Source of the DNA: Opitutales bacterium
GTDB lineage: Bacteria > Verrucomicrobiota > Verrucomicrobiia > Opitutales > PNEW01
Direction of reading: 5' to 3'
NCBI GenBank assembly: GCA_965219535.1
Contig: CBDCNV010000002.1
Span: 870,001 to 902,000 of the forward strand
Length of the DNA: 32,000 nucleotides
In this document: one piece after another, positions 981 through 26,295 of the stretch
Layout of the letters: every line of letters begins with the position of its first letter
Position numbering within the stretch: position 1 is the stretch's first letter
Translations under genes and position numbers: made by a program
The notes under the pieces: generated by a model
Told to the model about the DNA's origin: nothing
Database searches by the model: none
Seen by the model: only the letters and a program-made list of their open reading frames with translations

Positions 981-997
981 ACGATAGGGACACTCTC

Positions 998-1085
998 AAA
1001 CGCGGTAGGGAACAACCGTCGCCAAGGCTATGGCCAACAGGCACCAGTGTTCCACCTAATTGCTTAACACTTAAAACTTAAAACT
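998..1085. repeat. Degenerate REP unit (family 1, with 30-bp loop module) followed by a heptad array
   Basis: aaacgcggtagggaacaaccgtcgccaaggctatggccaacaggcaccagtgttccacc aligns to the R-type REP units at 10441-10499, 15164-15222 and 16731-16792. It is followed by GCTTAAC ACTTAAA ACTTAAA heptads. Confidence 0.6.
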
Positions 1086-6267: not shown

Positions 6268-6321
6268 ATTATAATTATAAATGAGACGTAGTTGACCATT
6301 CCGATTCTTAAATATTTATAT

Positions 6322-7131
6322 CTACTTTTTTATTTCCTTTAACATTTTATTGGTGGCGTGCAGCGCGTTGCTGTAACCGTCTCTAAGCGCGTCGAGATCC
6401 TGAATGCAGTTAAGCCAACGAACTCCCTTCTTAATGACATTACGCATCGATTCGTTCGGTGCGACTGGGGTCCCCATAACTTTATCGTGATTGCGACAAG
6501 CGTCGCCGACTTTGTCATAGACTTCCAATATTTTTTCATGATTGATCGGGTGATCAGCTTCACCGACCACGCCGTAACTTTGTGAGAGATCGCCATGACC
6601 GACAAATAACAGATCTATGCCCTCGACCGCGGCAATAGCTTCGACATCATCGACACCTTCTTTATCTTCGATCATCACACCAAGTAGTGTATGTTCGTTG
6701 GCCTGTTCAACATACTCTTTCAACTCAAGCTTTCCATAGTGTGAATCTCGGCCTAATCCCATACCTCGCATGCCTACCGGTTGATATTTTGCCATGCTTA
6801 CAAAATGACGCGCGTCATCGGCACTTTTACAATGCGGCCAGATCAAACCACCGGCGCCCAGTTCCAGTGGCTTGATGACTTGGTTATAAGGTCCATGGGG
6901 AATGCGGACTATGGCATCGAGTTCAACCATGCGCGTGGCTATAATTAAATTCGATAGCCCTTCCAAGCTGAGGTGCGTGTGTTCAGTGTCAATCCACACG
7001 CTTTTGTAGCCCGCTTGAGCAACCATTTCGACTACGATTGGATCAAATACCCGATTAATATCCGCAAGAACGACCACTTCACCCCTGAGCATTGAGGCTT
7101 TGGTTTTATTAACCTTAAATTGAAGATTCAT
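6322..7131 (-). CDS. HpcH/HpaI-family aldolase (2-keto-3-deoxy-acid aldolase type)
   Basis: 269-aa ORF. WIDTEH motif, IVRIP, GAGGLIWPHCKSADDARHFV and YQPVGMRGMG match the layout of the HpcH/HpaI aldolase fold. Confidence 0.75.
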   Translation of the reverse strand: MNLQFKVNKTKASMLRGEVVVLADINRVFDPIVVEMVAQAGYKSVWIDTEHTHLSLEGLSNLIIATRMVELDAIVRIPHGPYNQVIKPLELGAGGLIWPHCKSADDARHFVSMAKYQPVGMRGMGLGRDSHYGKLELKEYVEQANEHTLLGVMIEDKEGVDDVEAIAAVEGIDLLFVGHGDLSQSYGVVGEADHPINHEKILEVYDKVGDACRNHDKVMGTPVAPNESMRNVIKKGVRWLNCIQDLDALRDGYSNALHATNKMLKEIKK

Positions 7132-7339
7132 ATTAATTAATCTTTTCCAAAATGCTTGCGATAATTAATCTACAGTGAGTCGGATCCATCAATCAAAGTC
7201 AAATCGGGTCTATTTTAGGTTGATTAGGTAATTACCGACTGACATCAATTATAAGTTAATAGAAAGGGTAAAAAAGTAATTCGATCGACTGATAATTCAG
7301 ACCAGTTAGCGATTCGACAATTAAGGAACACTAAATTAA

Positions 7340-7681
7340 TTGATGGAGGAGCATTTCTCGATGAACTCTAAGCAATATAAAGTAAATTTTAATGAACTAC
7401 CCTGGGAAGACCCGTCACCCGGTATGCGCGTTAAGACAGACGAAATCGAGGGCAAGCGGATTCGTTTCATTGAATTATCAAAAGCGTTCGTCGATAAAGA
7501 ATGGTGCACCAAAGCTCACCATGGATATATACTGGATGGAGAGCTTGAATTTAATTTCAATGGTAATTTGGTGAAGTATAGTGCGGGCGATGGATTGATG
7601 ATTCCTGGTGGCGAAGAGAGTAAACACAAGGCTACGGCCATCACCGATAGGGTGAGTATTATTTTAATTGAAGAAGTCTAG
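7340..7681 (+). CDS. Cupin-domain protein
   Basis: Small ORF with cupin-like strands (HHGYILDGELEFNFNG...YSAGDGLMIPGGEESKHKA). GGAGGA at 7345-7350 sits 10 nt before the ATG at 7361, so the real start is probably 7361 rather than the TTG at 7340. Confidence 0.65.
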   Translation: MMEEHFSMNSKQYKVNFNELPWEDPSPGMRVKTDEIEGKRIRFIELSKAFVDKEWCTKAHHGYILDGELEFNFNGNLVKYSAGDGLMIPGGEESKHKATAITDRVSIILIEEV

Positions 7682-7704
7682 GATCTTCTAACATTATCCT
7701 AAGC

Positions 7705-8547
7705 ATGCTATCGAGTACGGAGAGTGAAGAGAGAATTAGGCGAGGGCTGGATTTTATAAATGAAAACGGTTCGGGCCATACGAAGGCAATTGGCAATGCC
7801 ATCGTAAAACCGGAAATGGTGGATGAAGCGCTGAATACGCTGCGGCCGTTTCAGAATGCTGATGGAGGATGGCGGGGAATGGACAGTGATATGAAAGGGC
7901 CCCTCTCCACTATTTCCTGTACATGGGTAGCAATGCAATGGCTGACTTGGCTTGATTGCAAAGAATCGAAATATTTAATTAGAACCGTCAATTTTATTAA
8001 AGAGGTTCAAAATGAAAGCGGATACTGGGATGAACCGGAAGCGATATTAAAACACGATCCACCGCCCTGGATGGTTCCCGGAGATTACGCTAATCAGCTG
8101 TGGTTGACCTCTGCCATCTGCTGCCAGCTGATGGAGATAAATAAAACCTCTGAGGTTAATTTTAAAGCGGCCACTGATTTTCTCCGGGCGGGATGGGACG
8201 GTAAGCGGTTTCCCGTATACTCCCATACCCATTGGATGACAATCGTTATATTTTACCGTCTTCGCGAGGATTCAAAAATAAACGCAAATATTGCCGAGGG
8301 CAGTAAACAGATTTTAACCTCTGAAATTTTAGAAGGCAATGAAGAACCATTTGATTTAGTTGACATTGCCTACGCTTCGCTTCGGGTCGGAAACTGGGCG
8401 GAAGATTTATTGAAGTTATCTTTGGATAAACTGTTGGAAAATCAGGCAGAAGATGGCGGATGGACAACAAACTACGGAGATCAACATCGACCGATGGGAA
8501 CAGCAAAAGCAATCTACCTGCTTAAAATTTTACCCAAGTTAAACTAA
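7705..8547 (+). CDS. Prenyltransferase/squalene-oxidase-repeat-like (alpha/alpha toroid) protein
   Basis: 280-aa ORF with repeated QxxDGGW-type motifs (FQNADGGWRG, QNESGYWDE, QAEDGGWTTNYG). Confidence 0.5.
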   Translation: MLSSTESEERIRRGLDFINENGSGHTKAIGNAIVKPEMVDEALNTLRPFQNADGGWRGMDSDMKGPLSTISCTWVAMQWLTWLDCKESKYLIRTVNFIKEVQNESGYWDEPEAILKHDPPPWMVPGDYANQLWLTSAICCQLMEINKTSEVNFKAATDFLRAGWDGKRFPVYSHTHWMTIVIFYRLREDSKINANIAEGSKQILTSEILEGNEEPFDLVDIAYASLRVGNWAEDLLKLSLDKLLENQAEDGGWTTNYGDQHRPMGTAKAIYLLKILPKLN

Positions 8548-8576
8548 TATGACAGGAATTTTAGGGAATCACCGTT

Positions 8577-9047
8577 ATGGATAATGTTTTCTGGGTCATT
8601 CCTGAAAAACTGGCTGGGCGGCCCGGCCCTGATACGGAACCGTGGGACCTCACCTCCTTGCGAGAGGGTGGCATTGGTGCAATCCTCTCGGTAAACGATG
8701 GTCGATTGTGCGATATCAATGAGATTCAGACCCAGGGCATCAATTACCTGTGCACCCCTTTTTCAGACTATGCCCCGCCCATTCCCGGGAATGAAAAGAT
8801 TTGTCTGGCTGCTCTCCCCAAAGCTTATGCCTTTGCGAAGGATGAAATAGGAAAGGGGCACGCCGTTGTCGTACACTGTTCAGCGGGTAAAGATAGAACC
8901 GGACTGTTTCTCTCTTATTTCCTCATGCAGCAAGACGGGCTATCGCCAAAAGATGCGATGAAGGCTGTGCGAAAGGTTCGCCCCATAGCATTTACTGCCT
9001 GGGGATGGGGGCCGTTCGCCGAACTCGTGCTCGAAAGCTGTGTGTGA
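8577..9047 (+). CDS. Dual-specificity/tyrosine protein phosphatase (CX5R)
   Basis: 156-aa ORF with the active-site P-loop VVVHCSAGKDRTG (HCxxGxxR[S/T]). Confidence 0.85.
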   Translation: MDNVFWVIPEKLAGRPGPDTEPWDLTSLREGGIGAILSVNDGRLCDINEIQTQGINYLCTPFSDYAPPIPGNEKICLAALPKAYAFAKDEIGKGHAVVVHCSAGKDRTGLFLSYFLMQQDGLSPKDAMKAVRKVRPIAFTAWGWGPFAELVLESCV

Positions 9048-9054
9048 TATAAAA

Positions 9055-9290
9055 AATCTTCGTCTTCGTCATCGTCCAGTATAATATTAACAAGCTGAGA
9101 AAAAAAGAAAAAGAGACAAAGATGAAGAGTTAGACGAAACCCATCAGTAAGATAGATGTACGATATTTGATATACGATATGCGATCTATGAAGTAAGTTT
9201 AATACATCACAATTCAAACGTCGGATATCAAACATCGAATATCTCTTTCCCTGTTTGAAGTTTTAAAATATAATGACGAAGACGAAGATT
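9055..9290. repeat. 236-bp AT-rich non-coding unit bounded by 18-bp terminal inverted repeats AATCTTCGTCTTCGTCAT
   Basis: 9055-9072 aatcttcgtcttcgtcat and 9273-9290 atgacgaagacgaagatt are perfect reverse complements. The unit fills the phosphatase/P-loop intergenic gap. The same motif recurs at 10353-10368 and 11400-11415. Confidence 0.7.
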
Positions 9291-9291
9291 A

Positions 9292-10335
9292 TTGTGGTTA
9301 ACCATCGTCAATGATACTATTCAACATGCTATCCCTGAGATGATTGATACAAAGCTAATCCTCATAGAAGGACAACCGGGATCCGGTAAGTCCACGACAG
9401 CGCAGTATATAACTAAGCAGTGTGAAAAGAACAACATCGCGGCAAGATGGTATCACGAACAGGATAAGCAAGCGCTCGAAATATTAGATGCTCGAAGTGA
9501 TTTCTCCGAGGTAAAAATAGCTCAGTGGAAAGCGTTTGTCTCTAAAGCGAAAGAGAGTAAAAAGGTGAACATTCTCGACAGTCGATATTTAATGAACTCA
9601 GTCGGGTTTTTCTTTGCGATGGATGAAATGGCTCAGCTGGCCGAATTTGAATCCATGTGGGAGGATAGTGTTAAACCATTAAATCCCGTTTTTATCTATT
9701 TCTATCAAAGTGATGTGGAAAAATCGTTAAGAAAAACTTTCGATATTCGACGTGAAGATTGGGAAGAATGGGCATTTAAAAAAATTAACGAGGGAACCGC
9801 GTTTGGAAAGAGAAATAAATTAAAAGGTCTTGATGGCTTTGTGACCTTTTTTAAGGAGTTTCAAAAAGTCACAGACAAAATATTTGATAAATTCCGCGGC
9901 AGAAAATTAGCGATCGAAAATTCAGAAGGGGAGTGGGAGAAGTATTACGAACAGATCTCACAGTTATTAGCGTTACCCCTGATAGATGAAGAAATTCGAC
10001 CTGAAGTGGACTTGGAAATTTATGTGGGTAGATATAGAAAAGTAAACGGTGAGCTTGAATGTGAAATCGCGTTAGACGATGATTATTTATATATCTTTAA
10101 ATCTGAAGCGGACAAAATCGTAGCAAAAAAAGAAAATATACTCACCTCAATAGGTGCGCATAAGTTTTATATTAGAGAAAGACCGGATGACATAGGTTTC
10201 CAATTAAATAATGATGGAGTCGTCGATAAGATGACACGGAAAGGGGCTTGGTATGAAATTGAACAGCTGGGTCACCCGATTTCCGTCTGGGATAGAGATG
10301 CTAAAGATACAATTTTTATAAGAACTTCGGATTGA
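9292..10335 (+). CDS. P-loop NTPase/kinase-like protein with an uncharacterised C-terminal domain
   Basis: Walker A motif EGQPGSGKST near the N-terminus. The ATG at 9340 (MIDTKLILIEG...) is a more likely start than the TTG at 9292. The C-terminal ~110 aa (YVGRYRK...ECEIALDDDYLYIF...FQLNNDGVVDKM) looks like an added beta-rich domain. Confidence 0.7.
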   Translation: MWLTIVNDTIQHAIPEMIDTKLILIEGQPGSGKSTTAQYITKQCEKNNIAARWYHEQDKQALEILDARSDFSEVKIAQWKAFVSKAKESKKVNILDSRYLMNSVGFFFAMDEMAQLAEFESMWEDSVKPLNPVFIYFYQSDVEKSLRKTFDIRREDWEEWAFKKINEGTAFGKRNKLKGLDGFVTFFKEFQKVTDKIFDKFRGRKLAIENSEGEWEKYYEQISQLLALPLIDEEIRPEVDLEIYVGRYRKVNGELECEIALDDDYLYIFKSEADKIVAKKENILTSIGAHKFYIRERPDDIGFQLNNDGVVDKMTRKGAWYEIEQLGHPISVWDRDAKDTIFIRTSD

Positions 10336-10394
10336 TCTACTTTTTCATAAAAAATTTTCGTCTTCGTCCTTCCATTTATATTCTACAATAAAAA

Positions 10395-10499
10395 GGTGGA
10401 ACGCGCTGTCCCTAGCGCGTTTAAAAATGTCATAAATAAAGAAACGTGCTAGGGACCAACCTTCGCCAAGGCTATGGCTGACAGGCAGCCCGCTCCACC
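10395..10499. repeat. REP doublet (REPIN-like), long form with 30-bp loop module
   Basis: GGTGGAACGCGCTGTCCCTAGCGCGTT ... AACGTGCTAGGGAC[caaccttcgccaaggctatggctgacaggc]AGCCCGCTCCACC. The two halves are inverted copies. Each half has its own 7-bp stem around the loop TGTCCCTA. Confidence 0.85.
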
Positions 10500-10575
10500 A
10501 CATTGCTAAAATTGTAACTCTTAACACTTGATTCCTTTGACATTAGACCTTTGACTTTCGCCCCGTTTACCTTCC

Positions 10576-11262
10576 ATGAAATACGATGCGGTCATTTTTG
10601 ATTTATTCGGGACACTTGTAGATAATTTTTCTCTCGTTGGGCACGAACGAGTTCTGAAGAACATGGCATCAATATTATCAGTATCTTCTGATGCTTTTGT
10701 CCAACTAACCGTCAGTACTTTCCATGAACGGGCTACCGGCGTCTATCCAGACACTGAAGCCTTTATCCGATACGCCTGCGCTGCACTTGGCGGTAATCCT
10801 AGTGTAGAGAATATAAAATTGGCTGTTCAGATTAGAGCTGATTTCGAACTTCAATCAATGGTTCCTCGAGATGGGGCGTTAGAAACACTAAAGGAATTGA
10901 AGAACATGGGCTTTAAGATCGGTCTGATAACTAATTGTACCGCCGAAGCTCCTGATTTATGGGACCAAACGCCCTTTGATTCACTTATCGATATAGCGAT
11001 ATTTTCTTCTTCGGTCGGGCATATGAAACCAGACCCGGAAATTTATAATTTAGCCTGTGAGAAATTACAAGTGGCTCCAGAGAAATGCCTTTTCATTGGC
11101 GATGGAAGCAATAAGGAACTCACCGGCGCCACCCAAGTAGGGATGGAAGCCATACATTTACGCATAGCCGATGAAGAGCTCGAAGATGCCTATTTGATAG
11201 AAAATGAAGATTGGAAAGGAACATCTATCTCGGCATTGAAGGAAGTTTTGGAATTGGTATGA
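10576..11262 (+). CDS. HAD-superfamily hydrolase
   Basis: 228-aa ORF with motif I at the N-terminus (AVIFDLFGTLVD), LITNC (motif II region), K in HMKPDPEIY and GDGSNKEL (motif IV). Confidence 0.8.
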   Translation: MKYDAVIFDLFGTLVDNFSLVGHERVLKNMASILSVSSDAFVQLTVSTFHERATGVYPDTEAFIRYACAALGGNPSVENIKLAVQIRADFELQSMVPRDGALETLKELKNMGFKIGLITNCTAEAPDLWDQTPFDSLIDIAIFSSSVGHMKPDPEIYNLACEKLQVAPEKCLFIGDGSNKELTGATQVGMEAIHLRIADEELEDAYLIENEDWKGTSISALKEVLELV

Positions 11263-11294
11263 TGGAATATAAGTTGTAAGTAGTTGAAATAATA

Positions 11295-11369
11295 GGTGGA
11301 ACGCGCTGTCCCTAGCGCGTTTAAAAATGTCATAAATAAAGAAGCGTGCTAGGGACAGCCCGCTCCACC
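11295..11369. repeat. REP doublet (REPIN-like), short form
   Basis: Near-identical to 10395-10499 over both arms and the spacer (one a/g difference in ...aaagaaRcgtgc...), but lacks the 30-bp module. Confidence 0.85.
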
Positions 11370-11419
11370 TTAATGCTTAAAACTTTTCGAATCAAACCAG
11401 ACGAAGACGAAGATTAGTT

Positions 11420-11899
11420 ATGAATAAATCAAACACCAGTATAGCTTCCCTTTCAGGAAGAGAGTTTACCTGTTTCCCGGTGGCGCTGGTGGGATATGTT
11501 GTAAACAAAAACAAAGAATTTCTCTTTCTCAGCCGCCGGGGAGAAGACTCCTGGGAAATTCCGAGCGGTGCCATGGAGGGGGGTGAGAACACAGTCGATG
11601 GCATAATGCGCGAATTGCATGAGGAATTGGGCGATGCTATCAGGGTCAAACCCTTGGGTGTTGTTCACGCTCACACTTTTCCCTTCGACGAAAAAGTAAA
11701 AGAGATGATCAGTATTGGGTTTCTTATACAGTATCTCGGTGGAGAGATAAATCCCAGTGACGATATGAAAGGTGCAGCCTATAAATGGATGAGTTTGGAA
11801 GAAATCAGTTTAGAAAAGAATATCTCCGTGCCACGAAATAAAGGCACGCTATTTGAACGGGCAACAGAATTGTATTCATTGTGGAAAGATGAAGAATAG
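11420..11899 (+). CDS. NUDIX hydrolase
   Basis: 159-aa ORF with a complete Nudix box GAMEGGENTVDGIMRELHEELG (Gx5Ex7REUxEExGU). Confidence 0.9.
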   Translation: MNKSNTSIASLSGREFTCFPVALVGYVVNKNKEFLFLSRRGEDSWEIPSGAMEGGENTVDGIMRELHEELGDAIRVKPLGVVHAHTFPFDEKVKEMISIGFLIQYLGGEINPSDDMKGAAYKWMSLEEISLEKNISVPRNKGTLFERATELYSLWKDEE

Positions 11900-11942
11900 G
11901 TGTTAAGTTTTAAGTGTTAGGTTTTAGGTTTATTTACTTAAC

Positions 11943-13319
11943 GGTACAACCAGGACATGGTTTACAGATTTAGATCAAGACATGGTTTACACTTTGTGAG
12001 GGATGCTGAACGGTAATCGGGTTATATAGTTAAGTTAATGTTATGCGGTTTTAGAGGTTTGGCTGGCATTGTTGGGGCCGCAAGCGGCCCCAATGAAAGC
12101 AGCCGTTGAAAGGTCAATCTGACCGATTCTGAGAGTGGCAAAGTAAACATCGAAGTGTACCGTGTCTAGTGGTTTTAGTCCAACGCTCCAACCGGCGAGG
12201 GCGGTGGAGATAGGAATCTGGAAGCCATCGAGTTTGATAGACCCGCTTTTTGAGACCCGGCGAGTCATCAAATCATAGCTGATATCGGCAGGAGTGCCAC
12301 CGTAAGGATGAGAGCTGTGCTGATAGATTTCAGAGGGCGTGCTCATGGCAAGAGCCGCATGGGGGCGTTCTTCATTGAAGGTCTTGCGCCACAGATCGAA
12401 GGCCACCTGTTGGGTGCGAAGATCGTCCTGGGCATGTTTTTGCAACTCCTCTTTGATATCGCGATGGAGACGCTCATGGGCACCGTTATCCTGGGGTTTA
12501 CCCGGACGTCCACGCTCGAGATTGATCCCTAAGGCCAGCCACCAGGCCGCCAGTTTGCTCAGGCCCAGGACCGCATTGGCACTGGCAAAGGGACTGCCGT
12601 TGTCGCTGCGGATGCAAGCGGGAAGTCCATAGCGTTCAAAGAGTTTTGTGAAGCATTCACGCACCGCTTCGCTACGGGCTGAACTGAGCACCCGCACCTC
12701 TAATACATAGCGGCTCCATTCATCCCGTACCGTCAAAGGTTCACAACGGTTGCCATCAACGGTGTGCCACCACCCTTTGAAGTCTACGCTCCACACTTCG
12801 TTACAGCCACTGGCCTTGACGCTGCGGTAAAGGCGTCCGCTTTTTTGAGCGCTTCTGCGCCGACGCTTTTGCACCAGTCCCGCACGTTCCAAGACCCGTT
12901 TCACGCTCGAGTCTGAGGGGGCCTTCCCGTAACGCCTCTGGTAAAGCTCGCGGATCTTGTAGGGGCCCCACGTCGGGTGATGATGCTTGAGTTTGATCAG
13001 CGTACATACTACTGATTCGGATAGTTCCTGAACACTTCCATGCGGTCGGCGTGAGCGCTCGTGCAACCCCTCCATCCCTTCGCTCAGGAAGCGCTTCTTC
13101 CATTTATACCCTGTCGGTCGGCTGATCCCGTAGTCTTCACACAGCTCGTTCATCTTTACTCCCGGTTGCATCGATTCCAGGGCGAATTGGTATCTTTGGT
13201 CCATTTTATTTGTTTCCTTCCATGACATCATACCCCTTACTTAGCATCCTTCTTTCTTTGGCAATCTGTAAAGGATGTCCTGAACCTTTTGTGTAAAGAA
13301 TGTCTTGAACCTATACCAA
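11943..13319 (-). mobile_element. IS481-like insertion sequence (single DDE/rve transposase)
   Basis: Imperfect terminal inverted repeats (left GGTACAACCAGGACATGGTTTACA; right end reverse-complemented TTGGTATAGGTTCAAGACATTCTTTACA), each end carrying two CA[A/G]GACATnnTTTACA sub-repeats. ACTTAAC is present on both flanks (11936-11942 and 13320-13326). G+C is visibly higher than in the flanks. Confidence 0.7.
12041..13231 (-). CDS. DDE (rve/integrase-core) transposase, IS481-family-like
   Basis: 396-aa ORF. N-terminal HTH (ELCEDYGISRPTGYKWKKRF). The catalytic region carries WSVDFKG (D), IRSDNGSPF (D) and KPQDNGAHERLHRDIK (E). Confidence 0.85.
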   Translation of the reverse strand: MMSWKETNKMDQRYQFALESMQPGVKMNELCEDYGISRPTGYKWKKRFLSEGMEGLHERSRRPHGSVQELSESVVCTLIKLKHHHPTWGPYKIRELYQRRYGKAPSDSSVKRVLERAGLVQKRRRRSAQKSGRLYRSVKASGCNEVWSVDFKGWWHTVDGNRCEPLTVRDEWSRYVLEVRVLSSARSEAVRECFTKLFERYGLPACIRSDNGSPFASANAVLGLSKLAAWWLALGINLERGRPGKPQDNGAHERLHRDIKEELQKHAQDDLRTQQVAFDLWRKTFNEERPHAALAMSTPSEIYQHSSHPYGGTPADISYDLMTRRVSKSGSIKLDGFQIPISTALAGWSVGLKPLDTVHFDVYFATLRIGQIDLSTAAFIGAACGPNNASQTSKTA

Positions 13320-13386
13320 ACTTAACACCTAAAACTTAACACGCACGTAAGTGCTATCCCTTTGACTTTCGACTGAGATACCTCCC

Positions 13387-13965
13387 ATGAGTATAGAAAT
13401 AATCGAAGAATCAACGGACTCCTTACCCGACTACGGCGAAGTATCAATTGCCTTTGAAGTGAAATCTCAATTGCGAGTTGAATCGAATGATAATGGACTG
13501 GGTGGCTTTCAATTTAAAGAAGAAGAAATCAGAGAGCCCTATATAAAGGATGCAGACCAGATTGAAGGTGAGGGCCCCCTTCAATGGTCGAAGACCATGG
13601 ACACAACCCATTGGGGTGTATTATCAGCTTACGATGATTCACAAAGAGTGGGCGGTGCAGTAGTCGCTTGGAAAACACCAGGTATATATTATATGCTCGA
13701 AGATCATGATGATGTAGCCGCACTTTGGGACATTCGGATACATCCTGTTTATCGCAGCCAGGGGATAGGTTCTCAATTACTCAATCGTGTTGCTGATTGG
13801 GCGCGGGATAAGGGATGTCGATTACTGAAAATTGAAACACAAAATAATAATGTGTGGGCATGCCGATTTTATGAGCGACAAGGATGTACACTCGGAGCTG
13901 TTAATCGCGATGCTTACAAAGAATTTCCCGATGAAATTCAATTAATATGGCACCTGAAACTTTAA
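13387..13965 (+). CDS. GNAT-family N-acetyltransferase
   Basis: 192-aa ORF with acetyl-CoA motif A IHPVYRSQGIGSQLLNRVADWARDKG and a downstream FYERQGC. Confidence 0.85.
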   Translation: MSIEIIEESTDSLPDYGEVSIAFEVKSQLRVESNDNGLGGFQFKEEEIREPYIKDADQIEGEGPLQWSKTMDTTHWGVLSAYDDSQRVGGAVVAWKTPGIYYMLEDHDDVAALWDIRIHPVYRSQGIGSQLLNRVADWARDKGCRLLKIETQNNNVWACRFYERQGCTLGAVNRDAYKEFPDEIQLIWHLKL

Positions 13966-14263
13966 TTCAGGTTCGTAGCGATAATGCTGATGATTATGAA
14001 ACCATATTCACAATTGATTTCCTTTGTCATCGCGAAGTAGGCGAAACCGACTGCGGCTACCGAGTGTGAAACGCGACATCTTTCATTCCAGGGGACTGGC
14101 GTTACATTACAGAAATTTCCCTGGATTGCTGCGGCTGACATGCGGCCTCTCGATGACAAAAAAGTGCGGATACGATGGAGTAACGGGAACAGTGAAGTAT
14201 CACCCCGAATTTAATTCACTTTAAAAGAATAATCTGTATTTTTAAATGTGATTCATAATTAAA

Positions 14264-14425
14264 ATGAATTTAATACTGAACTTCCTTGGACACACTTTTG
14301 CTATTATACTAATCCTTGTCGGGATCATTTCAGCGTATATTATTTTTCTCCCCCTTGGTTTAATTCTCGAATTATACTTTTGGAGAAGGATTTTATTCCC
14401 TTATCCAAAAAGTGTCGTTAAATGA
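14264..14425 (+). CDS. Candidate 53-aa hydrophobic small protein, translationally coupled to lepB
   Basis: Hand translation gives MNLILNFLGHTFAIILILVGIISAYIIFLPLGLILELYFWRRILFPYPKSVVK*. The stop overlaps the lepB start in ATGA (14422-14425). It is too short for the ORF track. Confidence 0.4.
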   Translation: MNLILNFLGHTFAIILILVGIISAYIIFLPLGLILELYFWRRILFPYPKSVVK

Positions 14426-15123
14426 AAATAAATTACAAAAAATGGGCTCTATGGTTGTGGAAAGAATGGGGAGCCCCCCTGCTGATCGTAGCAGTTATTG
14501 TTGTCCCTGTTAAAACCAGTCTAGCCGACTGGTATTGGGTTCCGTCGGGATCGATGAACCCGACAATCCTCGAAGGAGATATGGTGTTTGTAGACAAACT
14601 TGCTTACGACTTAAAATTTCCGGTTACTTTGCACCGACTTTCAAAATGGGCGGATCCACAGCGAGGTGATATTGTTGTCTGTTTTTCACCCGATGATAAT
14701 ACCCGGCTTGTTAAGCGAATAATCGGAGTCCCAGGAGACACCGTGCAATTGATCAATAATATTCTAATAATTAATGGTGAACGGTTGGATTATTCGGAGA
14801 TGGATCCGCAATACCTTGAATATCTCTCGGACGATTTAAGACGATACGCCAATTTCGCAAATGAGAATTTGGATAGTGAGCTTCACCCTGTAATGAGTAT
14901 TCCCAGCGTCCCCGCGCGTCGATATTTTGGTCCGGTAAATGTGCCTGAAGGGCAATATTTTATTATGGGAGATAACAGGGATAATAGTAAAGATTCGAGA
15001 GTATTTGGGTTTGTCAATCGAAGGGTAATTATTGGAAAAGCGAAAGGCGTCATCGTGTCATTTGATATTAACGATAAGTATCAGCCGCGAACGAAAAGGT
15101 TCTTCAGCTCCCTTTACCAATAA
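14422..15123 (+). CDS. lepB: Signal peptidase I
   Basis: 233-aa ORF with an N-terminal TM segment, catalytic Ser box SGSMNPTILEGD, Lys box VKRIIGVPGD and the GDNRDNSKDSR box. Confidence 0.92.
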   Translation: MKINYKKWALWLWKEWGAPLLIVAVIVVPVKTSLADWYWVPSGSMNPTILEGDMVFVDKLAYDLKFPVTLHRLSKWADPQRGDIVVCFSPDDNTRLVKRIIGVPGDTVQLINNILIINGERLDYSEMDPQYLEYLSDDLRRYANFANENLDSELHPVMSIPSVPARRYFGPVNVPEGQYFIMGDNRDNSKDSRVFGFVNRRVIIGKAKGVIVSFDINDKYQPRTKRFFSSLYQ

Positions 15124-15163
15124 TAATATTCAAAGCTTTTTATTATATCCATAGTTTGAGTAA

Positions 15164-15274
15164 GAAGCGTGCTAGGGACCAACCTTCGCCAAGGCTACGG
15201 CTGGCAGGCAGCCCGCTCCACCTATCATCTTTGAATAATGCAATAAGGGTGGAACGCGGTGTCCCTACCGCGTT
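15164..15274. repeat. REP units flanking the 3' side of the RAYT gene (R-type with 30-bp module, then F-type)
   Basis: 15164-15222 is gaagcgtgctagggac[caaccttcgccaaggctacggctggcaggc]agcccgctccacc. 15248-15274 is GGTGGAACGCGGTGTCCCTACCGCGTT. Confidence 0.85.
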
Positions 15275-15318
15275 TTTTTAAGATTGAATTAATTAAAACT
15301 TCTGAATTACCCGTATAC

Positions 15319-15756
15319 TTAATACTCCAAAGTCCAAGGCCATAACTCTGGTTTCGTGCATAATCCTTTTACTACTGGATTATAACGAATATAGGTGCTT
15401 TTTAATTCAAGTTCTTTATCATTTCTAATGCGGTGATCAAAATAGTTTTCCTGCCATTTTATAAAATTATTACGATGATGGTATTTCTTCCAAATACCTA
15501 TCAAATCGCTCATGTTCTTCTCTGGATTGAAAGACAATATTACATGAAGGTGATCGGGCATCAACACGAAGAGTCGACAATACCAATTACCCTTTTCCTG
15601 ATAGTAGATAACTGAATTGAGTATTTGAATGCCGAGAGAATAATCAGTCAAGGGAGGCTTGTTTTCCTGATGACAGCGAATGCGAATATGAAAGACTGAA
15701 CCAGATCTAACCCAAGATGGTGTCTCATGATAAAGTCGTCTCGGATACCGCTTCAC
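15319..15756 (-). CDS. REP-associated tyrosine transposase (RAYT; IS200/IS605-like Y1 HUH enzyme)
   Basis: 145-aa ORF with the HUH motif MPDHLHVIL, then WQENYFDHRIRN, then the catalytic-Tyr motif YIRYNPVVKGL and WPW. REP units lie in inverted orientation on both flanks. Confidence 0.85.
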   Translation of the reverse strand: MKRYPRRLYHETPSWVRSGSVFHIRIRCHQENKPPLTDYSLGIQILNSVIYYQEKGNWYCRLFVLMPDHLHVILSFNPEKNMSDLIGIWKKYHHRNNFIKWQENYFDHRIRNDKELELKSTYIRYNPVVKGLCTKPELWPWTLEY

Positions 15757-15816
15757 TCTATTCAGTGAAAGCGGAATTGTAAGACAAATATTAAGTTAAT
15801 AATATTAATTGATGTA

Positions 15817-15846
15817 AGAAGCGCGCTAGGGACAGCCCGCTCCACC
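15817..15846. repeat. REP unit flanking the 5' side of the RAYT gene
   Basis: agaagcgcgctagggacagcccgctccacc, followed by the heptad array CCTAAC ACCTAAA ACATAAC. Confidence 0.85.
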
Positions 15847-15889
15847 TTCCCACCTAACACCTAAAACATAACACGCGCGAACGCGCCCC

Positions 15890-16582
15890 TCAATCTATAA
15901 AGTCCGTAGTAATTTCCATCAGGCTATTGCCAAGAAATTCAGCGGCTTCATCATTGGACATTGTTTCGGGTAAGCTGTCGTAATAGCGGCATTGAAATTC
16001 GACGACGGAGAAGGGTTTGGGAAGATGAAACCGGTCCCAGCTCTTCATGCGCCAGGCGTTGTGGAATTTACCGGTGATGAGAAGGACGGGTGATTTCGCC
16101 TGGCGCGCGACAAGAGCGGCGCCCGGTTTGAACTGGTAGCGCGGACCGCGAGGTCCGTCGGGGGTAATCGCGATATCGTTGCCGGCATTGATTTGATTGA
16201 CGAGCTCACGGGTTGCGGTGACCGCCCGGTAACTGCTGGAGCCGCGGATCGCCTTAAGTCCGGCAAAGGAGAGGAAGGCGGTGAGCCAGGCGCCGTCGCC
16301 GCTAGCGCTGATCAGTCCGTACATCAGCCGGTGATAGCGGTAGCGCCTAATAATTTCAGAAGCGACGAAAAGCCAGTTGTGCCAGATGATCACCACTGCC
16401 GGGATATCAGTCTTGCTGATTAATCGAATATTCTCAGGTGTGATTTTAAAGCGAAGGGTGGCACCCCATAAACGAAGAATAACACTTAAAGGCCAGAACG
16501 CCACATAGCGCCACCCAGCAATGTGTTGGATCTTCGATGTGCTTTCACTTTCCGTATCCGATGCTGCTGCTTCTTCCTGCAT
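15890..16582 (-). CDS. DUF374-family (lysophospholipid-acyltransferase-like) protein
   Basis: 230-aa ORF. SASGDGAWL, IRGSSSYR and ITPDGPRGPRYQFKPGAALVA match my recollection of the DUF374 signature. Confidence 0.65.
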   Translation of the reverse strand: MQEEAAASDTESESTSKIQHIAGWRYVAFWPLSVILRLWGATLRFKITPENIRLISKTDIPAVVIIWHNWLFVASEIIRRYRYHRLMYGLISASGDGAWLTAFLSFAGLKAIRGSSSYRAVTATRELVNQINAGNDIAITPDGPRGPRYQFKPGAALVARQAKSPVLLITGKFHNAWRMKSWDRFHLPKPFSVVEFQCRYYDSLPETMSNDEAAEFLGNSLMEITTDFID

Positions 16583-16684
16583 GGTCTAACATTTATAGCC
16601 ACAAGAGGCACAAAAACCACAAGAAAATATAACTGGAAAATCGGAAAGGGGAGGGGAAGAGAGATTAATATAGATAATCCAAAA

Positions 16685-16792
16685 GGTGGAACGCAGTGTC
16701 CCTACTGCGTTTATTACAAGTAGTAAAAAAGAAGCGCGCCAGGGACCAACCTTCGCCAAGGCTATGGCCGGCAGGCAGCCCGTCCCTCCACC
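16685..16792. repeat. REP doublet (REPIN-like), long form
   Basis: GGTGGAACGCAGTGTCCCTACTGCGTT ... aagcgcgccagggac[caaccttcgccaaggctatggccggcaggc]agcccgtccctccacc, followed by CTTTGAC/TTTTGAC/CTTCGAC heptads. Confidence 0.85.
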
Positions 16793-16828
16793 CTTTGACT
16801 TTTGACCTTCGACCTTTGACTCTTAACG

Positions 16829-17875
16829 TTAATCAATATCCCGATAAGTGCCGTCGTATTTATGGACGAGGCGTCTGAGTTCGGACTTATCTTTATCATC
16901 GACTTGGAAACCGACGAAGTGGAGCCGTACATCATGGGGCGCATCCTTTTGTAGCTGATCAATTGTCATTCTCAATTCCAGCCAGGGTACTTTTTGCCAG
17001 GATTTACCCAGGGCGTTTCGCTGAAAACTGCCGTCGGAGAGGACAATAACTACCTCGGGATCGAGAAGAAAAGCGGCTGTGATTACGGACTGAATACCGT
17101 TCGGAACATCGCGGGTCCACGAAGACGCGCTTCTCCCATCGGTTCTGAATTCAGTTTCAAGCCAATGGGATGCGGCTTTTTTATTTCCACTCGAAGCGGG
17201 GACGAGGTAATCCTGGAAGCGATCATAATTACGAGAAAACTGAATGAGGTTAAAAAGTGTATTGCCGTTAAAATCATCGATCAGGTCTCGGGCTTCTTTT
17301 TTAATCTGGGTAATGGGCACCCCGCTCGACTCCGCCTTGCGAAGAACCGAGCTGGAGATATCAAAAGCGATAACCACTTTATCGGATTTGTCCTCGATCC
17401 CGAAAAAGGAAAAACTCGATGCCTCGGATTTCAATCCGTTCAAGGCGGCCATGATCCCGGACTGACCGAAGAGAGCGTTCGCGTCGTGAAAATTGATATC
17501 CGTGCTGAGGGGATTAAACTCTTCCATCGGAAACGCGGGAAGTTGGGGCAGTGTATCGTTGAGAAGAGCAGCAGTAGACAGGCGTTCGATCCGCTGCGGT
17601 TTACTCATTACCTGTTGATGCTCGGCGAAATGGACCCGATGTTCCAATTCACGCTGGGGAAGATAAATCGTTTTCGCCGCGAAAAATTCAGGTTCCGCGT
17701 CGTCGCTCGGCACAAAGACAACAACAAATACCGTGAGCAGGAGAATCGCCGCCTGGACGGCAACCGCGAGGATTAAAGTTGCAATGCTGAATGACCGGTT
17801 ATTGTGATTGCATTCCATCAATACATTGAAAACGGCAATAACGGCTCTTGAATTAATCATTATTTGTGCATACAT
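16829..17875 (-). CDS. Membrane-anchored von Willebrand factor A (VWA)-like domain protein
   Basis: 348-aa ORF with an N-terminal TM segment (IATLILAVAVQAAILLLTVFVVVF), a MIDAS-like VVIAFDISSSV (DxSxS), FNLIQFS and VVIVLSDGS. The start codon is uncertain because there are several N-terminal Met codons. Confidence 0.6.
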   Translation of the reverse strand: MYAQIMINSRAVIAVFNVLMECNHNNRSFSIATLILAVAVQAAILLLTVFVVVFVPSDDAEPEFFAAKTIYLPQRELEHRVHFAEHQQVMSKPQRIERLSTAALLNDTLPQLPAFPMEEFNPLSTDINFHDANALFGQSGIMAALNGLKSEASSFSFFGIEDKSDKVVIAFDISSSVLRKAESSGVPITQIKKEARDLIDDFNGNTLFNLIQFSRNYDRFQDYLVPASSGNKKAASHWLETEFRTDGRSASSWTRDVPNGIQSVITAAFLLDPEVVIVLSDGSFQRNALGKSWQKVPWLELRMTIDQLQKDAPHDVRLHFVGFQVDDKDKSELRRLVHKYDGTYRDID

Positions 17876-17928
17876 TTAAACATCGCTTGACAGCCTGAAA
17901 TTTGGCTGTAGTTTCGCCATTTCTGTAT

Positions 17929-18006
17929 GGGGCAGTAGTTCAGTTGGTTTAGAACGCCGGCCTGTCACGCCGGAGGTCGCGGGTTCAAGTCCCGTCTGTC
18001 CCGCCA
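17929..18006 (+). tRNA. tRNA-Asp: tRNA-Asp (anticodon GTC), CCA encoded
   Basis: Hand-folded cloverleaf. Acceptor GGGGCAG/CTGTCCC (one G-T pair), D stem GTTC/GAAC, anticodon stem CCGGC/GCCGG with loop CTGTCAC, T stem GCGGG/CCCGT with loop TTCAAGT, discriminator G plus CCA. Confidence 0.93.
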
Positions 18007-18228
18007 AATTTTGCATTGCAAAATTTGCCCACCGTAGTCCCGCTATTGCGGGACGAAGGCTGGCCTTTCGTGATCACATACTAGCTCAGCACAACAGCTT
18101 ATTAATCACCATGCCAGTTAATGAAGAGCAAAAGGTTGTTGAATTTGGACCTTTAGATCGGTAACGCATGAATCTTAATAAGAATCGTTTAGTTTAGCGA
18201 TCATTCCTTTTGTTCGCATCATTTTTTC

Positions 18229-18353: not shown

Positions 18354-19392
18354 TTATTTATACGCAACTGCAGCGCTGGTGGGACCGGCAAGACTTATAA
18401 CTTCGAAACGCTTGAATCCTGCATCAATACACCATTCGCGGAAATTTTCTCCTGTGTAATCGAAGGCATCGCCAAATTCGATGAGCATGTTGAGCGACAT
18501 TAAAAGGCCAAACGTATTTTCACGTCGGGCATCGTCGATCAAGTTTTCAATAGCAATAAAGGCGCCGCCCACCGGTAGTGCATCATAGGCATTCTTGATG
18601 AGAATTATCTTTTTCTCGAGGTTCCAGTCATGCAGAATATTACCCATTGTAACGACCTCGGCCTTTGGCAAATCGTCATTGAAGAAATCACCTGAAACCA
18701 CCTTGATACGTTCGGACATATCCGCCGCATCTATCTGTTTCTGGGCATGAGGCGCCACTGGTGAAAGGTCAAAGGTGCTAAACGTTAGATGTTCATGGCG
18801 CGCACCAACGATTCGTGACAACAGAGCTAGGGCGCCACCGATGTCGCTCACAGTCTTGTATTTGGAGAAGTCGAACTTCTCGGCCAATTGGGTGAAGTTT
18901 GCCGCTTGAAAACCGGTCATCGCATCAAGGAACTCTTCAAGTTTTAACCTCGTTTGCGTATAGTTCTTCGAAAATTGTTTTACCATTGATCTTAACTTCG
19001 TTCTGTGGCTGTCCAGTCTTAAGTGCAGTGCCAAGATGGTTCCAAAATCCAAATAGACGAGAGTTTAGCATCTCTGGCAAACCACCAATGTATGCTGGGC
19101 TGTTCTTGCCCAGGAACGCGGCTGTTTCGGGCGTGTTCTTATACTGACCTTCCGGACCATCCCCGTCACGGTCTAGAAATTTCAACGCCACCAGTGCGTC
19201 AAAGAAGTCATAGGTCCCACGCGGGTGAAGCCTGAGTTCCTTACCAAGTTGTTGTGCCGTCATTGACGCATCCCCAAGCGTGGTAAAGATATCCAGTTCG
19301 ACGGCCGTGAGCAGTACCTTGGAACCCCAAAAAGCCGTTGCCGTTTGCATTATGTGAGTCGCATCGAGTTGGTTCTTCATTTTTTCCTCCAT
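18354..19392 (-). pseudogene. Frameshifted class I O-methyltransferase (dimerisation domain plus Methyltransf_2-type domain), cassette-borne
   Basis: Two overlapping ORFs (18937-19392 and 18354-19052) together make one COMT-like protein. The N-terminal part ends ...FEELYANEVKT* and the C-terminal part resumes ...RLKLEEFLDAMTG...VSDIGGALA. Removing one G in the GAGG run (plus-strand cctc, 18948-18951) joins them as LYANELKLEEFL. RBS GGAGGA precedes the ATG at 19380. Confidence 0.8.
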
Positions 19393-20206: not shown

Positions 20207-20298
20207 TTCAAGTCCCGTCTGTCCCGTCAAACTTTGCATTGCAAAGTTTGCCAGCCGTAGCTCAAAGAGCGAAGGATGGCTTTTCGTAATCATCAGCT
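20207..20298 (+). repeat. Duplicate of the tRNA-Asp 3' end plus downstream sequence
   Basis: ttcaagtcccgtctgtcccg (20207-20226) is identical to tRNA positions 17984-18003. The similarity continues through aaaYtttgcattgcaaaRtttgcc...cgaaggNtggcYtttcgtRatca. Confidence 0.85.
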
Positions 20299-20567
20299 GG
20301 TTGCGTACAACAATTTGTCCCAATTCAACCCTAGCTTACCGAAGTCTTTGCATTGCAAAGTTTGCCATCCATCTTGTCGGCCATAGCCTTGGCGATGGCT
20401 GAAGCTCGAAGAGCGAAGGATGGCCTTTCGTGACCGTCACCCAATTATGAACAGCAGGTCACCCGCTTCAACCTCTAGCTTGTCGAAGTCTTTGCTATCG
20501 CAAATTTTAAGCACCCATGTCCCCGTATAACTTCATCACCCTACACTAAAGTCAGGCGATGCCGGCC

Positions 20568-21780: not shown

Positions 21781-22140
21781 GGAAATAGGGTCAGACTGCG
21801 AATTCTTTGATTGATAAGAAACTATGGGAGGACTGGAATTGCAAGAAATGGCTCGAAAACCAAGGTATGAAAGTAACAACGGGCTCTACCACATCATCAA
21901 AAGGGGAAACTATCACCGGGATCTGTTCTATGCGGCGAAAACAAAGAAAGCTTTCAAACGGACGCTGATTAAAGCGTGCAACAGCCCGAAACGGATGGAT
22001 AGCAGCCAGGTTAAATATGGGTGAGTATAATTCAGTTAGTCACAATGTTAGTATCTTTCAGTGTGAGCAGAAGAACAGAGGTAAAGCCTACAGAACTTTG
22101 AATAAAATCAAAGAATTCGCAGTCTGACCCTTTACGTTTT
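21781..22140 (+). mobile_element. MITE-like unit A: 25-bp perfect TIR around a Y1/HUH-transposase N-terminal remnant
   Basis: TIR GGGTCAGACTGCGAATTCTTTGATT at 21788-21812, with its reverse complement at 22106-22130. The internal ORF 21824-22024 encodes ARKPRYESNNGLYHIIKRGNYHRDLF..., which is the conserved N-terminus of COG1943-type transposases. The HUH and Tyr motifs are missing. Confidence 0.75.
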
Positions 22141-22592
22141 CTCATGATGCTGAGGCCGACGTATCGTTAGCAGAAGTGTTTAACTCTACGGGGATAGCGG
22201 GGATGCAGTTGTCGAACGCCGTCTTCAGTGGTAGCACTGGTAAAGTTGGAGTTGATGCCCGTGGGATACCCATATCGGTCCGCTTAACAGTTTGAGATAT
22301 CGATGCTAGTGGATTTGCATTTCCTTACTTATTGTTTGGGCAAGGTTCGTTCACGGTGCCAGCAGCCAATCCAGGATTGCGCATTACTGGAGGAGACTTA
22401 TTTCAATCAAATGGCTCTCCCGTTATAGTAGCAGAAAACGGTTCAACGATACCTGGATTTGACACTCTGATCGCACAGAATAATATCAAATCCCACAACA
22501 CCCCTCAAGCAACTCGAAGCATTGACGCCCCTTTTGCTAATGAAGATGGACAGGAAATTTCTGTTACTGTGGAAGAGGTGACAATTGAGTAA
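22141..22592 (+). pseudogene. 5'-truncated paralog of the C-terminus of the 746-aa secreted protein (1103-3343)
   Basis: Hand translation gives HDAEADVSLAEVFNSTGIAGMQLSNAVFSGSTGKVGVDARGIPISVRLTV*DIDASG...GDLFQSNG...EEVTIE. This aligns with YDAQADVTLVEVVNSTGMGGMQLSNAAFSGSTGKVGVDARGVSIAVRLTVGDIDANG.... An in-frame TGA at 22293-22295 replaces a Gly codon. Homology starts at the end of MITE-like unit A. Confidence 0.85.
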
Positions 22593-24091: not shown

Positions 24092-24459
24092 GGAAATAGG
24101 GTCAGACTGCGAATTCTATGATTGATAAGAAACTATGGAAGGTTTGGAATAGCAAGAAATAGCTCGAAACCATAGGCTTGAAATTAACAATGGGTTCTAC
24201 CACATTATCAAACGGGGAAACTATCACCGGGATCTGTTCTTTGCGGCGAACGGCGAAAACAAAGAGAGCTTTCAAACGGACGCTGATTAAAGCGTGCAAC
24301 AGCCCGAAACGGATGGATCGCAGCCAGGTTAAATATGGGTGAGTATAATTCGGTTAGTCAAAATGCTAGTATCTTTCGGCGTGAGCAGAAAAACAGAAGT
24401 ATAGCCGACAGAACTTTGAATAAAATCAAAGAATTCGCAGTCTGACCCTTTATGTTTTA
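24092..24459 (+). mobile_element. MITE-like unit B (decayed copy of unit A, same orientation)
   Basis: Collinear with unit A at roughly nine identities in ten by eye. The transposase remnant is broken by TAG codons and a cggcgaa tandem duplication. The TIRs are present, with one mismatch. Confidence 0.75.
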
Positions 24460-26048: not shown

Positions 26049-26137
26049 ATTTCGATCGTATTCAATTGCCTTACATTAGATTTGATAATCGGCAATTTAT
26101 CAAATCTCGGTTGTAGCGGGAAGAAAGTAATATAAGG

Positions 26138-26166
26138 GAATTCGCAGTCTGACCCTTTATGTTTTC
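26138..26166. repeat. Solo right-end unit of the GGGTCAGACTGCGAATTC family
   Basis: gaattcgcagtctgaccctttatgttttc matches the right ends of units A and B. No partner left end is nearby. Confidence 0.8.
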
Positions 26167-26295
26167 CTCTGAGGCGTTTAATTGTTCTCCTACCACATCG
26201 GTCACCCAGTAATCCAGCACTTCCTTTTCATGATCGTCAACGGTCCCTGATGCATGGCTTCTGTTTGATCCGACCTTTCGCCATCATTTGTGCCA

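Follow-up and report, generated by a model that had tools for sequence, protein, structure and literature searches.

A probable REPtron in an Opitutales-like chromosome: a compact RAYT gene bracketed by inverted REP hairpins

Does the short open reading frame (ORF) at 15319-15756 of the stretch analysed here form, together with the inverted hairpin repeats on its two sides, a system of repetitive extragenic palindromic (REP) sequences and a REP-associated tyrosine transposase (RAYT), or is it an insertion sequence (IS) of the IS200/IS605 type? The stretch, called the window from here on, comprises 32,000 nucleotides (nt) of contig CBDCNV010000002.1 from an Opitutales bacterium. The original prediction, made from the letters of the window, had proposed an apparently intact REP/RAYT system at this place. 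Our analysis indicates that the locus is very probably a REPtron, that is, a RAYT gene within a small cluster of the REP hairpins that go with it, on a chromosome of Opitutales-like (Verrucomicrobiota) type. This reading rests directly on the anatomy of the locus, the family and the modelled fold of the protein, the covariation of the hairpin and the association of repeat and gene.

The ORF encodes 145 amino acids and carries both motifs that had been claimed for it, the histidine-hydrophobe-histidine (HUH) motif within MPDHLHVILSF (H69-L-H71) and the catalytic tyrosine Y122 within TYIRYNPVVKG. In profile searches, the NCBIfam model NF047646 (REP_Tyr_transpos) was matched end to end over residues 15-141 with 78.1 bits (E = 6e-22), whereas the IS200 TnpA model NF033573 reached 18 bits against a cutoff of 55, and Pfam Y1_Tnp was barely over its cutoff of 23 with 24.7 bits. 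The top sequence match in the PDB was 4ER8, the TnpA-REP protein of Escherichia coli, at 8.6e-5 with the single sequence and at 5.6e-10 with a family profile of 29 homologues. The same structure was the top Foldseek match (template modelling score, TM, 0.72; root-mean-square deviation 2.5 Å) of an AlphaFold2 model built on the homologue alignment (predicted local distance difference test score 89). The structures of IS200, IS608 and ISDra2 followed behind 4ER8 with TM about 0.5, and all of the best 30 matches (E up to 1.1e-3) were Y1 transposases. By sequence, by predicted fold and, although the RAYT cutoff is narrowly missed, by the direction of the profile scores, the protein stands apart from ordinary IS200 TnpA.

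The homologue alignment (29 sequences, 46-92% identity) has 25 invariant columns, including H69, H71, Y122 and N126, and the window protein keeps every one of them, in agreement with the claim that the gene is intact. In the HMMER alignment to 4ER8, Y122 falls on Y115, the catalytic residue, N126 falls on N119, a metal ligand, and Lys130 stands where the E. coli enzyme has its metal ligand His123. The C-terminus lies directly behind the WPW motif, and a C-terminal tail of the E. coli type is absent. Database searches returned 265 homologues, mainly from Verrucomicrobiota, with the genera Opitutus, Lacunisphaera, Didemnitutus, Pelagicoccus and Cephaloticoccus, and in a few cases from Kiritimatiellales; many carry the Joint Genome Institute (JGI) name 'REP element-mobilizing transposase RayT'. 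Judged by its sequence and predicted fold, the encoded protein is intact and RAYT-like.

The repeats around the gene follow one plan. A REP unit consists, in this order, of a GGTGG-A tag, a stem of 7-8 bp, a GTCCCT loop and the return stem, and it comes as an L type with a perfect stem, GGTGGAACGCGCTGTCCCTAGCGCGTT, and as an R type with a single G.G or G.A mismatch, GGTGGAGCGGGCTGTCCCTAGCRCGCTT. On the coding strand of the RAYT gene, GGTGGAGCGGGCTGTCCCTAGCGCGC lies at 15846-15820, 64-90 nt upstream of the GTG start codon, and AACGCGGTAGGGACACCGCGTTCCACC at 15274-15248, 45-71 nt downstream of the stop codon. The two are mutually inverted and the GGTGG tag of each faces outward from the gene; the bracketing by inverted REPs that the original prediction described is therefore real. 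With a leader, a linker and a further R-type REP they make up a cassette of about 690 bp (window 15162-15848), the parts of which are, from the gene outwards:

15319..15756, minus strand: RAYT gene, 145 aa, GTG start; H69/H71 (HUH), catalytic tyrosine Y122, N126
15757..15819, minus strand: 5' leader from the upstream REP to the GTG start, a conserved part of the cassette, near-invariant in a three-genome alignment
15820..15846, minus strand: upstream REP, R type, GGTGGA tag and imperfect hairpin GCGGGCT/AGCGCGC, tag outward
15248..15274, plus strand: downstream REP, L type, GGTGGA tag, perfect 8-bp hairpin ACGCGGT/ACCGCGT, loop GTCCCT, tag outward
15223..15247, no strand assigned: 25-nt linker TATCATCTTTGAATAATGCAATAAG, conserved, lying between the tags of two REPs
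15162..15222, minus strand: R-type REP with a 31-nt module (15180-15210) in its loop, the last conserved element of the cassette

The 25-nt linker is also found behind R-type tags in the related loci L001, L104/L105 and L108, and the module-bearing R-type REP is kept downstream of the RAYT gene in L001 and partly in the chromosome OY829953.1. Exactly one RAYT gene is present in the window; its neighbours are lepB and a DUF374 gene, and no tnpB is adjacent.

The repeat is enriched in the window. Allowing up to 3 mismatches, the 27-mer REP consensus was found 4 times, against 0 in 100 shuffles, and the 13-nt half-site GTCCCTAGCRCGY 11 times, against 1.0 +/- 1.0 expected. A gapped search in which a loop insertion was allowed recovered 10 genuine units between 995 and 16792, where seven or more within 16 kb had been announced, and all 10 lie between ORFs. 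The units outside the cassette are the following:

10395..10499, no strand assigned: doublet resembling a REPIN (REP doublet forming hairpins), L-type REP (plus strand), 20-nt spacer, R-type REP (minus strand) with module 10457-10487; long hairpin, z = -5.5
11295..11371, no strand assigned: REPIN-like doublet, L-type REP (plus strand), identical 20-nt spacer, R-type REP (minus strand) without module; -26 kcal/mol, z = -8.3
16685..16792, no strand assigned: REPIN-like doublet, L-type REP (plus strand), 20-nt spacer, R-type REP (minus strand) with module 16747-16777
995..1056, minus strand: solitary R-type REP, partly degenerate, with module 1013-1043

All three doublets have their tags outward, two of them share an identical spacer, and as single-stranded DNA a doublet folds into one long hairpin. 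Such head-to-head doublets of L-type REP, spacer and R-type REP have the geometry of REPINs, and at the RAYT locus the gene, lying between the L unit on the plus strand (15248-15274) and the R unit on the minus strand (15820-15846), takes the place of the 20-nt spacer of an ordinary doublet. Over all loci collected, tags-outward doublets account for 73 of the 93 close REP pairs, with spacer classes of 25-27 and 41-44 nt.

The hairpin is supported by its thermodynamics and by its pattern of substitutions. The L-type REP folds as single-stranded DNA with -9.5 kcal/mol (z = -4.2), and the three non-identical L stems of the window, that of the downstream REP at 15248-15274 among them, differ by compensatory changes (GCGCT/AGCGC, GCGGT/ACCGC and GCAGT/ACTGC). 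In the 133 exact REP matches from all collected loci, the three stem pairs not fixed by the search pattern are Watson-Crick pairs in 112, 126 and 130 cases, the innermost of them being T-A in 88, C-G in 30 and G-C in 12; the closing pair is A-T in 68 and G-C in 60. Covariation was tested on 60 distinct variants, anchored on tag and loop only, against 500 shuffles. Paired cells made up 91% of the stem, as compared to 75% in the shuffles and at most 54% in slid controls, double-sided changes numbered 75 instead of 20, and the covariation score of 0.446 (0.152 shuffled) was reached by 0 of the 500 shuffles. The GGTGG tag and the GTCCC of the loop are invariant across these variants, partly by construction of the set. 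With its unpaired GGTGG tag, its covarying 8-bp stem and its GTCCCT loop, the repeat fits the definition of the GTAG-tagged REP superfamily, a stem-loop with a stem of 6-9 bp and, at one end, an unpaired tag like GTAG. An Rfam search returned no family matching the REP. A terminator scan of the RAYT region called none of the REPs, its calls being a hairpin with heptad tail at 15870-15887 and two unrelated sites, and the REPs carry no T-tract of their own.

The association of repeat and gene extends to related genomes. In a scan of one genome per species, in 8-kb blocks, the exact core GGTGGARCGNNNTGTCCCTANNNCG was found in at least 102 blocks, nearly all from Opitutales/Opitutaceae metagenome-assembled genomes and a few from Chthoniobacterales and Udaeobacter; by our estimate from the information content of the pattern, about 9 matches would be expected by chance over the collection as a whole. 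A RAYT homologue is encoded in 2 of these blocks. On the complete 4.49-Mb chromosome OY829953.1 at least 31 REP units were counted across 17 sampled blocks, next to one recorded member of the close RAYT cluster, and each large contig likewise has one cluster member. In the dozens of Opitutales genomes that share the REP core, REPs far outnumber RAYT genes. The arrangement of inverted REPs around a RAYT gene is repeated in eight related loci at 43-95% identity to the window RAYT, namely L121 (95%), OY829953.1/L120 (94%), L001 (92%), L104/L105 (72%), L060 (49%), L061 (43%) and the loci of Pelagicoccus enzymogenes (L119) and of a soil relative (L109), both at about 52%, in which the GGTGGAGC tag is kept beside another hairpin. 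The enrichment of the family and its link to the gene in relatives are thus both borne out. A search of 72,556 plasmids with the RAYT gave only two weak matches (26-30% identity), and for the relative P0071 one and the same context recurs in 24 contigs, which come from many samples.

How such a system would work can be outlined by analogy to the E. coli enzyme, in which Y115 is catalytic, N119 and H123 are metal ligands, the C-terminal tail (to E161) auto-inhibits, and the tag guides cleavage, the base on the 5' side of the cut (C) being set by G4 and the one on its 3' side (T) by A3 (Messing et al., 2012, PMC3479197). On this model, the RAYT would recognise single-stranded DNA, for instance at a replication fork, by binding the foot of the hairpin together with the unpaired 5' tag. 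Tyr122 would cleave through a 5'-phosphotyrosine intermediate, with the metal held by His69, His71 and Asn126, and strand transfer would copy or move REP doublets around the chromosome, the gene itself staying at low copy. If the same guide rule holds, the predicted cut would be C^C rather than C^T, since the GTGG tag has G where GTAG has A, and basal activity is predicted to be higher because the auto-inhibitory tail is missing.

The original prediction had also described the repeats as composite REPs made of a hairpin, a 30-bp module and heptads. This description did not hold, as the components are three independent things: the REP, a nested 31-nt hairpin module and terminator-like heptad tails. 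Of the six R-type units, four have the 31-nt segment (read on the REP strand, TGCCTGYCRGCCRTAGCCTTGGCGAAGGTTG) in place of a single T between GGGC and GTCCC. It was also found alone at 20375-20401 of the window and in L016, L030 and L108, within a different left-hand context in OY829953.1, and as related copies in Chthoniobacterales and other Opitutaceae as well as in L028 and L077, which sets it apart from the REP. Many copies fold into an outer stem, a 3x3 internal loop (RUA/GAM) and GC-CUUG-GC, and the outer stem varies by compensatory changes (CCGGCC/GGCTGG, CCTCC/GGAGG, CGCC/GGCG, CCGCC/GGTGG). With a covarying stem of its own, stand-alone copies and another left-hand context, the module was rejected as an integral part of the REP; no Rfam family matched it. 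Other inserts occupy the same loop position, one of 25 nt in L001, OY829953.1 and CBDANS and one of 80 nt in L108 that consists of two GTAG-tagged palindromes, and from this variety it follows that REP loops of this lineage collect other small palindromes.

The heptads, (GTKTTAR)n, run on the strand of the upstream gene directly behind short GC hairpins at gene ends, with arrays at 1063-1084, 11900-11935, 13320-13342 and 15853-15874. R-type tags often lie 6-8 nt past such arrays. The arrays at 11900-11935 and 13320-13342 stand without a REP, and some REPs stand without heptads. The heptads were rejected as part of the REP, since each occurs without the other and one array forms the T-rich tail of a terminator-like hairpin, the GCGCG hairpin with heptad tail called by the terminator scan at 15870-15887.

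The GTKTTAR heptads are periodic, conserved and more regular than a simple T-tract. A second heptad family, CTTTGAC/CTTCGAC/TTTTGAC, was seen at 10535-10560, 13360-13372 and 16793-16825; the first two of these arrays lie about 15-40 nt upstream of start codons, and the family may be a 5'-untranslated-region or promoter motif. Further palindromic families were noticed in L108 (12110-12205) and L107 (15440-15555), including GTAG-TCCCGCAGTCGCGGGA, paired inside a REP loop, and a GGAGGG-tagged hairpin, so that several REP-like families coexist in the relatives' genomes.

The chromosomal position of the cassette differs between close relatives. In OY829953.1, L121 and L001 it lies between an SGL gene and a major facilitator superfamily (MFS) gene, in the window between lepB and DUF374. 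The window cassette is 95.3-95.6% identical to the copies of OY829953.1 and L121 (577-618 aligned bases) and 90.7% identical to that of L001 (707 bases), where homology stops exactly at the outer GGTGG tag; for the RAYT ORF by itself, identity is 96.6% with OY829953.1 and 94.7% with L001. Two more RAYT contexts are found in L123 (a 74-78% relative) and L104/L105. The closest syntenic relative, L107, is a 3.3-Mb contig (ERZ25072854) with 91-96% nucleotide identity over most of 2975-18006, and L108 is the second (80-87%). Both have the order lepB, cargo genes, creatininase, DUF374, without a RAYT in the lepB-DUF374 interval and with an ordinary L-spacer-R doublet beside the DUF374 terminator. 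This interval is a generally variable spot: in L107 it holds an IS1-like gene and other cargo, and in the window the creatininase gene is lost.

Because the cassette stands between SGL and MFS in three relatives and the lepB-DUF374 interval of L107 and L108 is free of a RAYT, the comparison suggests that the whole REPtron was relocated to lepB-DUF374 once and recently. Self-mobilisation, recombination from REP to REP or horizontal transfer may each have brought it there, the interval being variable anyway. The sampled OY829953.1 blocks share no housekeeping orthologue with the window. The doublets of the window have had different fates. That at 11295-11371 has an orthologous copy in L107 (8279-8353) and that at 16685-16792 an orthologous, more decayed one (16506-16609), and in the L107 intergenic region corresponding to 10395-10499 there is unrelated, unalignable sequence. 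Since this doublet is replaced in L107 and REP cluster size is unequal between OY829953.1 and L121, the flanks of which are 95-99% identical, REP turnover between close relatives appears to be ongoing.

The displacement of the cassette invites another explanation, in which the cassette would be an autonomous IS200/IS605-type IS, with the flanking REPs as its ends, the doublets as deletion derivatives (miniature inverted-repeat transposable elements) and a gene that transposes itself. A unit of about 690 bp, put at 95-97% identity across its four copies, at SGL-MFS in three genomes and at lepB-DUF374 in the window, syntenic relatives that have no RAYT at the latter site (L107 at 91-96% nucleotide identity, and L108), homology that ends at a REP tag and the two further contexts in L123 (74-78%) and L104/L105 (72%) are what such an element would leave behind. 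We consider it improbable all the same, given that the IS200 model scores 18 bits (cutoff 55) where the RAYT model scores 78 and that the predicted fold is nearer to TnpA-REP than to any IS200 or IS608 structure. The copy number, one in the window and one cluster member per large contig, the lack of an adjacent tnpB, the essential absence of the family from the 72,556 plasmids and the fixed context of P0071 in 24 contigs argue in the same direction, and because lepB-DUF374 is generally variable, REP-mediated recombination could explain the move. Within the REPtron reading itself, it is a tentative and rather doubtful proposal that the REPtron still moves as a unit, the cassette having passed from SGL-MFS to lepB-DUF374 by inserting beside, or recombining with, a resident REP at the GGTGG/CCACC tag. 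If true, a RAYT would have been caught mobilising itself and not REPINs alone, and would stand midway between autonomous elements of the IS200 kind and RAYTs that have been domesticated.

At the other extreme, the RAYT gene could be a decaying relic, and the REPs, no longer moved, could be kept by the host as structural elements of RNA or DNA, such as transcript ends, determinants of mRNA stability or protein-binding sites. The intergenic position of all REPs in the window, the R-type tags that repeatedly adjoin terminator-like hairpins with heptad tails at gene ends, the two orthologous doublets kept in L107, a high ratio of non-synonymous to synonymous changes and a profile score slightly below the cutoff would fit this explanation. 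We regard it as very unlikely indeed in view of a full-length ORF with every invariant residue and a confident model, of the replaced 10395-10499 doublet, of a cluster size that differs between OY829953.1 and L121 despite 95-99% identical flanks, and of REPs without a T-tract of their own. The REPtron, which we prefer to both explanations, has weights on the other side as well. The NF047646 score falls 1.9 bits short of the curated cutoff of 80. Among the three closest RAYT copies, codons with non-synonymous changes are numerous relative to those with synonymous ones (9:5, 12:11 and 10:10), so that constraint on the gene may be relaxed. The position of the gene is not conserved, which fits less well with the usual view of RAYTs as immobile and vertically inherited. 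The copy numbers of RAYTs and REPs are those of the window and its relatives rather than of the window's own full genome, and binding, cleavage and the C^C site are carried over from the E. coli enzyme.

Other mobile or repeated elements were recorded in the window. An IS481-family IS occupies 11941-13316, and its transposase ORF (12041..13231, minus strand, 396 aa) has the Pfam domains rve, HTH_32 and LZ_Tnp_IS481; its target duplication is ACTTA, the empty site is found in L107 (8900-8945), and a 93-94% identical copy occurs in OY829953.1 (L081). This ORF had been considered as EF-Tu on account of its size and a 94% match to OY829953.1, a candidate rejected on the Pfam result. The inverted heptad arrays at 11900-11924 and 13318-13342 were likewise rejected as terminal repeats of the IS481 element, as the empty site of L107 shows them to be host sequence with the IS inside. 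The 3' end of tRNA-Asp and the hairpin following it (17929-18006, 17984-18037) are duplicated 2.2 kb downstream at 20207-20260 with 91% identity, and the duplication brackets a segment in which an O-methyltransferase is divided between two ORFs that overlap (18354..19052, 18937..19392). In L107, a phage-type integrase lies downstream of a VWA gene where the alignment with the window ends at tRNA-Asp; the region resembles a hotspot of integration that holds a decayed islet.

An element of about 345 bp is present in two copies (21787-22131 and 24098-24449) and a partial one (26128-26175), with perfect 26-nt terminal inverted repeats AGGGTCAGACTGCGAATTCTTTGATT. Its first copy holds a 66-aa ORF (21824-22024; MARKPRYESNNGLYHIIKRGN...) that resembles the N-terminus of COG1943 Y1 proteins by eye, a resemblance that is unconfirmed, and that had no match in Pfam, NCBIfam, PDB and plasmid searches. 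A 447-nt inverted repeat (1105-1551 and 22144-22590, 71% identity) stems from large Ig_7 (CHU_C-associated) surface proteins whose C-terminal regions are paralogous; the family recurs in several copies in OY829953.1 and CBDANS. For the signal peptidase gene lepB (14422-15123), the best homologues behind two close relatives (about 65% identity) carry the annotation Sedimentisphaerales or Planctomycetota. The window's REPs, RAYT and IS point instead to Opitutales, a placement within the PVC group that is provisional.

To our knowledge, experiments on REP/RAYT systems have been made almost only in E. coli and Pseudomonas. The locus provides a well-delimited verrucomicrobial example, with a compact tail-less protein, a GTGG tag and a loop that is invariant across many species, and thus a natural variant with which to test the guide rule (C^T for GTAG, a predicted C^C for GTGG) and to ask what the C-terminal auto-inhibitory tail does. 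Between relatives whose flanks are 90-99% identical there are differences in the size of REP clusters, in the presence of REPs at orthologous sites and, once, in the position of the RAYT cassette, and these make the lineage usable for asking how REPINs and RAYTs move. For annotation, the consequence is that the gene should be named RayT and the repeats REPs; nothing fundamental changes.

REPs have been sorted into GTAG- and CGTC-tagged super-families in a study that also reports REPtrons and an abundance of REPs with GTAG or GTGG tags from the verrucomicrobium Opitutus terrae, the tag being mutated to GTGG in most of its GTAG-20 elements (Di Nocera et al., 2013, PMC3733652). Since these REPs and REPtrons were reported in 2013, genomes of this type had yielded such a REP/RAYT combination before, and the one described here is a further example of a kind known from the same order. 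The novelty foreseen by the original prediction was in this respect overstated, JGI already using the name RayT; the compact 145-aa RAYT with its REPs is real, and a modest extra interest lies in the relocated cassette and the nested hairpin module. The O. terrae families GTAG-17 to -20 come from the same bacterial order, have an unpaired tag beside a 6-9 bp stem, form head-to-head and tail-to-tail dimers and are associated with RAYT genes called 'REPtrons' (PMC3733652). An O. terrae REP that we back-translated from the supplement (inferred as GTGG-CACGGGC-GTGCC-GCCCGTG) has another stem and loop than the window REP, and many REPs are described there as intragenic, as against 0 in the window.

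The closest experimental counterpart is the REPtron of E. coli K-12 (Ton-Hoang, 2012; Messing et al., 2012, PMC3479197), the best match in sequence and fold, with which the locus shares a single-domain HUH/Tyr protein, inverted REPs flanking the gene, and a REP made of an unpaired 5' tetranucleotide tag and an imperfect hairpin. As in the E. coli bacterial interspersed mosaic elements with their y and z REPs, the two REP subtypes here follow one another in alternating orientation and are joined by conserved linkers, again of two kinds. The protein differs from E. coli TnpA-REP, to which it is about 21% identical, in its length of 145 instead of 165 aa, in the missing auto-inhibitory tail and in Lys130 at the metal site in place of His123, and the REPs differ in the tag, GTGG and not GTAG, and in the invariant GTCCCT loop. 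With the REPIN-RAYT systems of Pseudomonas and Enterobacteria (Bertels and Rainey, 2011, PMC3116915; Bertels et al., 2017, PMC5581495) it shares short-spacer inverted doublets that fold into one long hairpin, REPs that far outnumber the RAYT, a repeat that flanks the RAYT, and a family that is not found on plasmids. Unlike in those systems, one REP core is common to many species of an order. Highly abundant flanking 16-mers are known only from RAYT Groups 2 and 3, which are vertically inherited and housekeeping-like (Bertels et al., 2017, PMC5581495), and the locus departs from these groups in a chromosomal position that differs between close relatives. Finally, the locus has in common with IS200/IS605 elements such as IS608 and ISDra2 the HUH/Y1 superfamily, a predicted recognition of hairpin plus guide on single-stranded DNA and a cassette bounded by hairpins. 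It is unlike them in an IS200 model score far below the cutoff, a lower fold similarity, the lack of tnpB, a gene apparently at low copy and flanking hairpins from a family that is dispersed in tens to hundreds of copies.

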